Shown in pieces: positions 2,945-4,114 of a stretch of DNA of 10,606 nucleotides. Origin of the DNA: a virus. Both the position numbers and the translations under genes were made by a program. Location of the stretch: UHGV virus genome UHGV-0360087; one strand, written 5' to 3'. The stretch's first letter is position 1; each line of letters begins with the position of its first letter. Below the pieces are notes generated by a model that had not been told where the DNA came from, ran no database searches, and saw only the letters and a list, made by a program, of their open reading frames with translations.

Positions 2945-4114
2945 GTGGCCCTCAGTGATACCAAACTTCGTAGCATCAATGGTAAGCCCTACAGCGGCGC
3001 ACCCGAAGTCACAGATGGTGACGGTTTGAGTGTGCGTATTACTCCGACTGGAACGATTACATTTCAGCATCGATATCGCTGGAACGGTAAGCCTGTTCGC
3101 CTCTCTGTCGGCCGGTATCCTGCAATGTCCCTCAAAGAGGCCCGCGTTATCGTCGGTGAGATGCGCGAATTGTACCTCAAGGGGCTAAACCCTAAAAATT
3201 ATTTTGCCAAAGAAGATGGCGAGCTAACGCTCAAAGAGTGCCTGGATCAGTGGTGGACTAAGTATGTTGAAACGCTGAAGCCTAATACCCAGACGCTGTA
3301 TAAGTCGGTTGTGTACAACACCATGTACACAGAGTTCCCGGACGCACCGGTCGTAAACATCCCCGTTTCGGCTTGGGTAAGGTTCTTCGACAAGCAGGAG
3401 AAGAAAAACGGGAAAAAGGCTCGGGTGCTGCTGCTCCAACTCCGATCCGTAATGAACTGGTGTATCAGCCGTCAGCTGATCCCTTCGTGCGAGGTGCTGA
3501 AACTCAGCGTTAAGACCATCGGCAAGAAACCAGACGTTGGTAGCCGGGTACTCACTTATACCGAGCTGGCAAAAATCTGGTTAGCGCTGGAAAACAATAA
3601 GGTCGTTAGCTCCAATAAGGTTCTTCACCAGTTGCTGTTGCTCTGGGGTGCGCGATTATCCGAACTGCGCCTGGCCACCGCAAGTGAGTTCAATATGGGC
3701 GATCTGATTTGGACGACGCCAGCCGAGCATTCCAAAATGGGAAATGTTATTCGTCGGCCTATATTCGACCAGGTTAAACCTTACATTGAAAGGCTTCTCA
3801 ATGCTGGGAACGATATTCTTTTCCCGGGTCAGGAACTGGACAAGGCTATAGATCGCTCCTCAGCCAATCTCTACATGAAAAAGTTAAGGGATAAAATTGA
3901 TATACCGGAATGGCGAACCCACGACTTCAGGCGTTCTCTGGTAACGAATTTGTCAGGGGAGGGGGTTATGCCCCATGTCACTGAAAAGATGCTGGGGCAT
4001 GAACTTGGTGGTGTGATGGCGGTGTATAACAAACACGACTGGCTGGTGGAGCAGAAAGACGCTTATGAGCTTTATGCCGATAAAGTGTTCTGGCACGTCA
4101 AACAGCTCGGTTAA
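2945..4114 (+). CDS. Tyrosine integrase (phage integrase family with DUF4102-like N-terminus)
   Basis: GTG at 2945 gives MALSDTKLRSINGKPY..., a typical N-terminus for this family. The ORF is open from GTG 2924, which is the alternative start. C-terminal motifs HDFRRS, LGH and catalytic Tyr (AVYNKHDW) are present, and the stop TAA is at 4112-4114. Confidence 0.85.
   Translation: MALSDTKLRSINGKPYSGAPEVTDGDGLSVRITPTGTITFQHRYRWNGKPVRLSVGRYPAMSLKEARVIVGEMRELYLKGLNPKNYFAKEDGELTLKECLDQWWTKYVETLKPNTQTLYKSVVYNTMYTEFPDAPVVNIPVSAWVRFFDKQEKKNGKKARVLLLQLRSVMNWCISRQLIPSCEVLKLSVKTIGKKPDVGSRVLTYTELAKIWLALENNKVVSSNKVLHQLLLLWGARLSELRLATASEFNMGDLIWTTPAEHSKMGNVIRRPIFDQVKPYIERLLNAGNDILFPGQELDKAIDRSSANLYMKKLRDKIDIPEWRTHDFRRSLVTNLSGEGVMPHVTEKMLGHELGGVMAVYNKHDWLVEQKDAYELYADKVFWHVKQLG

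Follow-up and report, generated by a model that had tools for sequence, protein, structure and literature searches.

The window analyzed in this study, a 10,606-nt stretch of viral DNA (UHGV virus genome UHGV-0360087), probably carries the Phi24B-type recombination module of a lambdoid prophage that occupies the tRNA gene argW, with int and xis uncoupled by their orientation and the 17-nt overlap of their convergent 3' ends a matter of packing. From the sequence, this reading draws on the anatomy of the int/xis junction, the homology of the gene products to experimentally validated proteins, the finding that the overlap is conserved yet dispensable, and the lack of terminator signals at the junction. 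The dedicated int promoter, its independence of CI and the activity of Xis are taken from the literature on phage Phi24B, and we infer by analogy that the same regulation holds in the window.

Anatomy of the int/xis junction

The two genes end within one another on opposite strands (Table 1). On the + strand, positions 4097-4114 read GTC AAA CAG CTC GGT TAA, which gives the integrase the C-terminus ...VKQLG followed by a TAA stop at 4112-4114. On the - strand, GGC GTT AAC CGA GCT GTT TGA gives the small gene the C-terminus ...GVNRAV, followed by a TGA stop that occupies 4100-4098. Both stops were read directly from the bases. An earlier, sequence-only reading of this DNA had placed the integrase stop within the last codons of an oppositely oriented xis-like gene and the stop of that gene at 4098-4100, and had described the pair as convergent, with overlapping 3' ends and a layout unlike the co-directional xis-int of lambda. 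Re-reading of the sequence bore out each of these points, as int lies on the + strand and xis on the - strand and the two have 17 nt in common.

The same reading had pointed out that a different true stop or start for either gene could remove the overlap. The starts did shift slightly, the stops stayed fixed, and the overlap remained. Mechanical ORF calling gave 396 codons on the + strand (2924..4114) and 80 codons on the - strand (4098..4340). To judge from the sequence, the int start is most likely GTG 2945 (MALSD...), rather than GTG 2924; the alignment with Phi24B Int begins at ORF residue 8 (MALSD), and GTG 2945 matches the revised TTG start of Phi24B. For xis, the most likely start is ATG 4283, which has GAGGA in front of it and yields a product of 61 aa, whereas the GTG 4340 of the mechanical ORF is unlikely to be used. 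The revised starts of both genes leave the 17-nt overlap untouched.

Table 1. Features of the int/xis junction and its surroundings (positions are those of the window)
Feature	Position	Strand	Details
Second integrase, IntS-type	1356..2549	-	On the 3' side of argW, same orientation as the tRNA
argW, tRNA-Arg(CCT)	2675..2749	-	ARAGORN; host gene, with the attachment core in its 5' part
24-bp attachment core, attL junction	2726..2749		Equals the first 24 nt of the tRNA
Candidate pInt	2883..2912	+	-35 TTGCCA, 18-nt spacer, -10 CAGAAT; inside the attL arm
int, P4-type tyrosine integrase, 389 aa	2945..4114	+	Pfam, PHROG 1 and Phi24B homology; ORF open upstream to GTG 2924
int/xis 3'-3' overlap, 17 nt	4098..4114		Int codons (V)KQLG and stop; Xis codons (V)NRAV and stop
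xis, excisionase-type HTH protein, 61 aa	4098..4283	-	Last gene of the leftward operon; Phi24B Xis homology
Leftward early operon upstream of xis	4337..7460	-	DUF4222, DksA/TraR zinc finger, Dam methylase, PHROG 1680, Gp157/Gam-like, RecT, lambda-type Gam
Candidate leftward early promoter (pL-like), low confidence	8089..8118	-	Consensus scan only
CI-like repressor	8339..9094	-	HTH_3 and Peptidase_S24

Conservation of the overlap among relatives

We assembled 106 loci in total (80 from viral contigs and 19 from representative genomes, together with annotated phage and genome loci) and measured the distance from the xis stop to the int stop in each; the resulting counts include close relatives and do not represent independent events. 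Both genes were present in 102 of the loci, and in all 102 they were convergent. The 17-nt overlap was found in 44 of these (in Escherichia, Enterobacter, Pantoea, Erwinia, Phytobacter, Chania, Rosenbergiella and Hafnia), and Xenorhabdus contributed two loci with a 14-nt overlap and two with a 23-nt overlap, bringing the loci with an overlap of any length to 48. Three loci (Salmonella, Rouxiella and X. hominickii) have a gap of 17-25 nt between the stops, and in the other 51 the stops are separated by an insert of 556-1767 nt consisting of a cargo cassette. The overlap is also present in existing annotations. GenBank HM208303 (Phi24B) places int at 236..1405 (+) and xis at 1389..1571 (-), which is a 17-nt overlap, and the identical overlap is annotated in the argW prophage of E. 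coli 472 and in Pantoea phage AH07.

Comparison of these sequences suggests that the 17-nt overlap is more than a product of chance and that, across Enterobacterales, it represents the common ancestral state of this module. The overlap is missing in the relatives with gaps or inserts and is therefore not required. The stricter proposition, that exactly 17 nt are required, was rejected based on the 14- and 23-nt overlaps of Xenorhabdus and the gaps of 17-25 nt in Salmonella, Rouxiella and X. hominickii. Two alphaproteobacterial records, a Martelella alba contig (L098) and a Pararhizobium MAG contig (L099), also carry the module, with Int 78-83% identical; assembly contamination or mis-binning is the likely explanation for their presence.

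The insert-bearing loci indicate which residues of the two proteins are free to vary. In these loci, Int retains ...WHVK and Xis retains ...GG(V/I)N, while the final two to five residues differ from cassette to cassette. Only the last three to four variable residues of each protein are dual-coded in the overlap, and these tails are dispensable ones; the conserved core of each protein extends up to the point at which the other's tail and stop codon begin. The two frames are offset such that a wobble position in one gene falls on a second codon position in the other, and wobble variation in the overlap is therefore low, as dual coding predicts. Among 29 unique close sequences, the mean entropy at int wobble positions was 0 in the overlap versus 0.70 in the adjacent 150 nt, that at xis wobble positions was 0.20 in the overlap versus 1.07 outside it, and the most variable sites were located in or beside the two stop codons. 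The wider set gave a result in the same direction, with 5 of 8 wobble sites variable inside the overlap versus 91 of 98 outside (one-sided Fisher p = 0.027). This suppression of wobble variation supports the translation of both frames to the stops given above. Conservation of the overlap sequence would then be accounted for by dual coding, with no need for a further element. A counterpoint to packing is that the 17-nt form is unchanged across several genera, which could reflect more than dual coding.

Similarity between the window and the nearest Klebsiella/E. coli prophage int genes (84-86% nt) ends at 4095, and that to the Stx argW phages (76% nt) ends at 4121, which makes the junction a mosaic boundary as well. 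None of the complete E. coli genomes contained 80% or more of positions 2600-4800 of the window.

Possible transcription across the junction

Potentially, convergent genes with overlapping 3' ends could act as an antisense or transcriptional-interference switch, an idea already raised in the sequence-only reading. In the lysogen, constitutive transcription of int would extend over xis in antisense and reduce leaky production of Xis; once the prophage is induced, leftward read-through would cover int in the same way and reduce the supply of Int. A terminator consensus scan found nothing near the junction, with its matches elsewhere at chance level, and neither of the RNA folds computed for the 160 nt that follow the two stops reached significance (z = -1.6 and -1.2). 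As no terminator-like signal follows either stop within about 160 nt, antisense read-through is physically plausible, and the opposing transcription units would overlap physically well beyond the 17 shared nucleotides. The placement of cargo on the int strand, with no terminator matches, also favors a switch, as it suggests that int-strand transcription extends beyond int.

A mechanistic model for such a switch is available in coliphages 186 and P2, which have no homology to the window and in which int and the recombination directionality factor (RDF; Apl or Cox) are likewise on opposing transcripts. In coliphage 186, the convergent promoters are known to interfere with each other and face each other about 60 bp apart at the 5' ends, whereas the transcription units of the window meet at their 3' ends and have promoters that are kilobases apart. 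The 186 system is discussed in PMC7498355, and antisense interference near a gene annotated as xis has been documented in S. aureus phage 80alpha (PMC11087260).

Several observations count against a switch and lead us to consider it unlikely. The overlap is absent in about half of the relatives, and any effect would hinge on convergent transcription and not on the 17 shared bases. In addition, int mRNA of Phi24B was unaffected by over-expression of CI (PMC3064807) and was reported as "unaltered" after norfloxacin induction (PMC4651098), in RNA-seq that may not have been strand-specific. Our literature search found no report of interference for the Phi24B-type module, and in the Phi24B papers the words overlap, convergent and antisense do not occur in the context of the int/xis junction. 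To judge from the sequence of the junction, some regulatory cross-talk between the int and xis units is possible, and packing is our preferred reading of the overlap itself.

Cargo at the junction

The region between the int and xis stops is a cargo hotspot, with cassettes in half of the loci that have both genes (L032-L087, L002 and L099). There are at least ten different cassettes, and their GC content is 31-40% versus 50% for int; the window carries the "empty", cargo-less state of the junction. Most cassette genes are on the int strand, with starts 9-91 nt past the int stop and ends 15-64 nt short of that of xis. Matches were identified to the PADLOC candidates PDC-S31 (DUF2971; proteins of 229 and 312 aa) and PDC-S42 (296 aa) and to Peptidase_C92 (331 aa), and several cassettes were without a family match. 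Promoter and terminator consensus scans of two cargo-bearing loci gave results at chance level, with no terminator matches, and the placement of the cassettes hints that int-strand transcription runs on beyond int. Although defence hotspots of prophages are well known as a general phenomenon (PMC9122126), the literature that we searched contained no description of this one. We consider the hotspot to be of more interest than the overlap itself.

These cassettes permit a more elaborate form of the switch, in which the junction would be both a two-way antisense device and a plug-in site. CI-independent read-through from int in the lysogen would express the defence-type cargo, in loci that have it, and silence leaky xis, and after induction leftward read-through would be antisense to both cargo and int, switching off self-targeting cargo as well as Int. 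If this were true, the 17-nt "empty" form in the window would represent a conserved regulatory architecture in its most reduced form. We regard this combined device as distinctly doubtful and retain packing as the account of the overlap.

Identity of the integrase and the excisionase

The earlier identification of the two products as an integrase and an excisionase-type small DNA-binding protein is upheld by their homology to Int and Xis of Phi24B. Int has Pfam matches to Arm-DNA-bind_3 (1.1e-17) and Phage_integrase (1.3e-16), matches PHROG 1 and is 86% identical over 389 aa to the integrase of Stx phage Phi24B. Xis has 60% identity and 82% positives over 57 aa to the validated Xis of Phi24B (E = 2e-28), is 68% identical to the "excise" protein of Pantoea phage AH07 and matches PHROG 66, "excisionase and transcriptional regulator" (E = 2.3e-5). 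In Phi24B, xis was the sole candidate ORF adjoining the 3' end of int, and co-expression of its product with Int led to excision on an attL/attR substrate (PMC3064807). This experimental validation of the orthologue is stronger evidence for the function of the small protein than a predicted fold.

Searches against families and structures gave less. The best Pfam match of Xis was HTH_17 at 21.5 bits, which is under the 27-bit cut-off, and Pfam yielded no match to Phage_AlpA (PF05930) at E <= 0.01. There was no match in NCBIfam, a sequence profile search of the PDB returned chance matches only, and a single-sequence AlphaFold2 model was too poor to use (mean pLDDT 58). Hence the earlier label of "AlpA/Xis-like" stands in its Xis part, whereas its AlpA part is weakly supported, the connection having been made through published HHpred results that linked the Phi24B orthologue to Phage_AlpA (PMC3064807). 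Because the Pfam threshold for AlpA-type families was not reached, "AlpA-like" denotes a resemblance and not a demonstrated membership.

The same weak family evidence could be taken to mean that the small gene encodes some other small HTH regulator or inhibitor, in which case the int/xis framing of the junction would be wrong. The gene often adjoins candidate defence cargo, and there is a precedent in the gene annotated "xis" in staphylococcal phage 80alpha (PMC11087260), where the ith/tha "noncontiguous operon" likewise has a small antisense xis-annotated gene near int and a defence gene. However, the 80alpha "xis" is not an excisionase, has no homology to the window gene and comes from a phage of another host phylum, whereas the excisionase activity of the window gene's orthologue has experimental support (PMC3064807). 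The level of identity to that orthologue, the PHROG 66 match and the co-variation of the small protein with its Int across genera, with or without cargo, render a non-excisionase role very improbable. Lastly, the proposition that the overlap is an ORF-calling artefact, with one frame not translated to the stop shown, is scarcely credible and was rejected. Mechanical ORF lists do over-call, and the tool starts at 2924 and 4340 are too long, but the stops are fixed by the sequence, the C-termini ...KQLG and ...NRAV are kept in validated or annotated homologues of several genera, and the suppressed wobble variation of the shared bases points to selection acting on each of the two frames.

The attachment site at argW

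The integrase gene is 175-195 nt from tRNA-Arg(CCT) and divergent from it. The argW of the window is identical to that of E. coli except at tRNA positions 2 and 5. We placed the attachment core by means of a feature annotated as "duplication due to insertion" in the Stx2 argW phage LC645409 (46..69); the crossover site of Phi24B is likewise 24 bp (PMC7581858). A second copy of the 24-bp core, representing attR, was not found in the 10,606-nt window, which is too short to span it. The prophage sits in the 5' part of argW, and phage DNA therefore replaces the region upstream of the tRNA. The phage-side core alters the acceptor stem of argW, which reads GCCCCCT in the window versus GTCCTCT in the wild type and produces a C2.A71 mismatch. 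The GCCCCCT stem was also present in one E. coli genome (L003) and one other locus, and GTCCCCT in 25 loci. With an IntS-type gene on its 3' side and the Phi24B-type int on its 5' side, argW is occupied on both sides by two elements; flanking of argW by two integrases was also observed in E. coli 472.

The pInt and pL candidates are consensus matches of a kind that occurs at chance frequency. In an alignment of the window with Phi24B, the Stx2 argW phage and Pantoea phage AH07, the pInt-like block is nearly invariant. We infer that the candidate in the window is the counterpart of the dedicated int promoter of Phi24B that was mapped by 5'-RACE (PMC3064807).

The leftward operon and immunity region

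The xis gene ends a run of tightly packed minus-strand genes that extends toward a CI/Cro-type immunity region, and adjacent genes of the operon upstream of it mostly overlap by 4 nt. A terminator-like hairpin (8217-8200) is located upstream of the pL-like candidate, and both are just left of the repressor gene. By analogy with lambda and Phi24B, the leftward operon, with xis as its last gene, is presumably under the control of the CI-like repressor. Its presence and the order of the operon make the layout a lambdoid one, with the exception of the int inversion.

Where lambda has cro, the window has a gene with a Pfam match to YdaS_toxin, and the neighbor of this gene matches YdaT_toxin (9133-9972), a pair that is of the Rac-prophage type rather than lambda cro/cII. 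The repressor gene and the cro/ydaS-like gene are separated by a perfect 9-bp inverted repeat, ATGGTTGTT-N7-AACAACCAT (9070-9094). The scan marked this repeat as terminator-like on both strands; in appearance it is closer to an operator. Seven terminator-like matches were found in the region 7400-9500, versus 1.9 expected.

Comparison with known systems

The window shares with the Phi24B type, which also includes Stx phages 86 and 1717 and argW-inserted Stx2a/Stx1 phages, a P4-type Int and an Xis at the identities given above, the inversion of int relative to lambda, a convergent xis, the identical 17-nt overlap, the conserved pInt-like block and a 24-bp core that lies 5' in argW, with intS nearby. 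It appears to agree with a Phi24B-type module in every respect that can be judged from sequence. There are also differences, as the leftward operon of the window has RecT, Gp157 and Dam, whereas the related E. coli 472 prophage has a Bet/Exo region; moreover, the window has no stx genes, its Xis is 40% diverged and its core differs at two bases.

Much of this arrangement was already on record, as the inverted int and convergent xis were described in 2010-2011 and the overlap is present in GenBank annotations. Fogg et al. (PMC3064807) reported that int of Phi24B is inverted relative to lambda and 933W and is expressed in lysogens from a dedicated promoter, without repression by CI, and that xis keeps the lambda orientation under pL. 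They proposed that this arrangement explains multiple lysogeny together with stable prophage maintenance. The same int orientation was noted in phages 86 and 1717 by Smith et al. (PMC3430580). Panis et al. (PMC2951348) described a general class in which int, uncoupled from the RDF, is transcribed from a promoter that overlaps attL, and in their scheme the tRNA/int pair of the window has the rare "opposite-divergent" (OD) shape. These three papers (PMC3064807, PMC3430580 and PMC2951348) do not discuss the overlap itself or antisense effects.

In the IntS-TorI systems of KplE1, HK620 and Sf6, as would be the case in the window, int is uncoupled from the RDF gene and has a promoter of its own over attL (PMC2951348). 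Their RDF is a small protein of the winged-helix type. As in the window, their tRNA is argW, and the window has an intS-like gene on the other side of this tRNA. However, IntS lies 3' of argW and reads in the direction of the tRNA (STI), whereas int of the window is on the 5' side and divergent (OD). The torI gene of KplE1 is, we presume, located at the distant end of its prophage rather than adjoining int tail to tail.

Lambda likewise has a tyrosine integrase and a small RDF that ends the leftward early operon, and its xis has the same orientation as that of the window. The xis and int genes of lambda are co-directional with a head-to-tail overlap and are co-transcribed from pL, with pI and sib retroregulation. 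In the window, by contrast, int is inverted and has a candidate promoter of its own.

Proposed mechanism and significance

In the mechanism that we consider probable, int would read away from attL, from its own promoter inside the attachment region, such that Int would be made in the lysogen independently of the phage repressor. As the last gene of a leftward early operon that begins beside the CI-like repressor, xis would be expressed only after induction. With Int constitutive and Xis induced, the direction of recombination would be set by the supply of Xis alone. The 17-nt overlap would be an inherited, maximally compact form of the junction, under a mild dual-coding constraint and not itself regulatory.

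The relevance of these results is modest and concerns the annotation of prophage ends at argW and the mining of defence genes. Natural overlap, gap and insert alleles exist for testing antisense control, among them the 25-nt gap of Salmonella and a PDC-S31 cassette of 986 nt. What is new here for this family of prophages is that the 17-nt overlap appears to be ancestral yet dispensable, and that the int/xis junction is a hotspot of int-strand, low-GC cassettes, some of which match candidate defence families.
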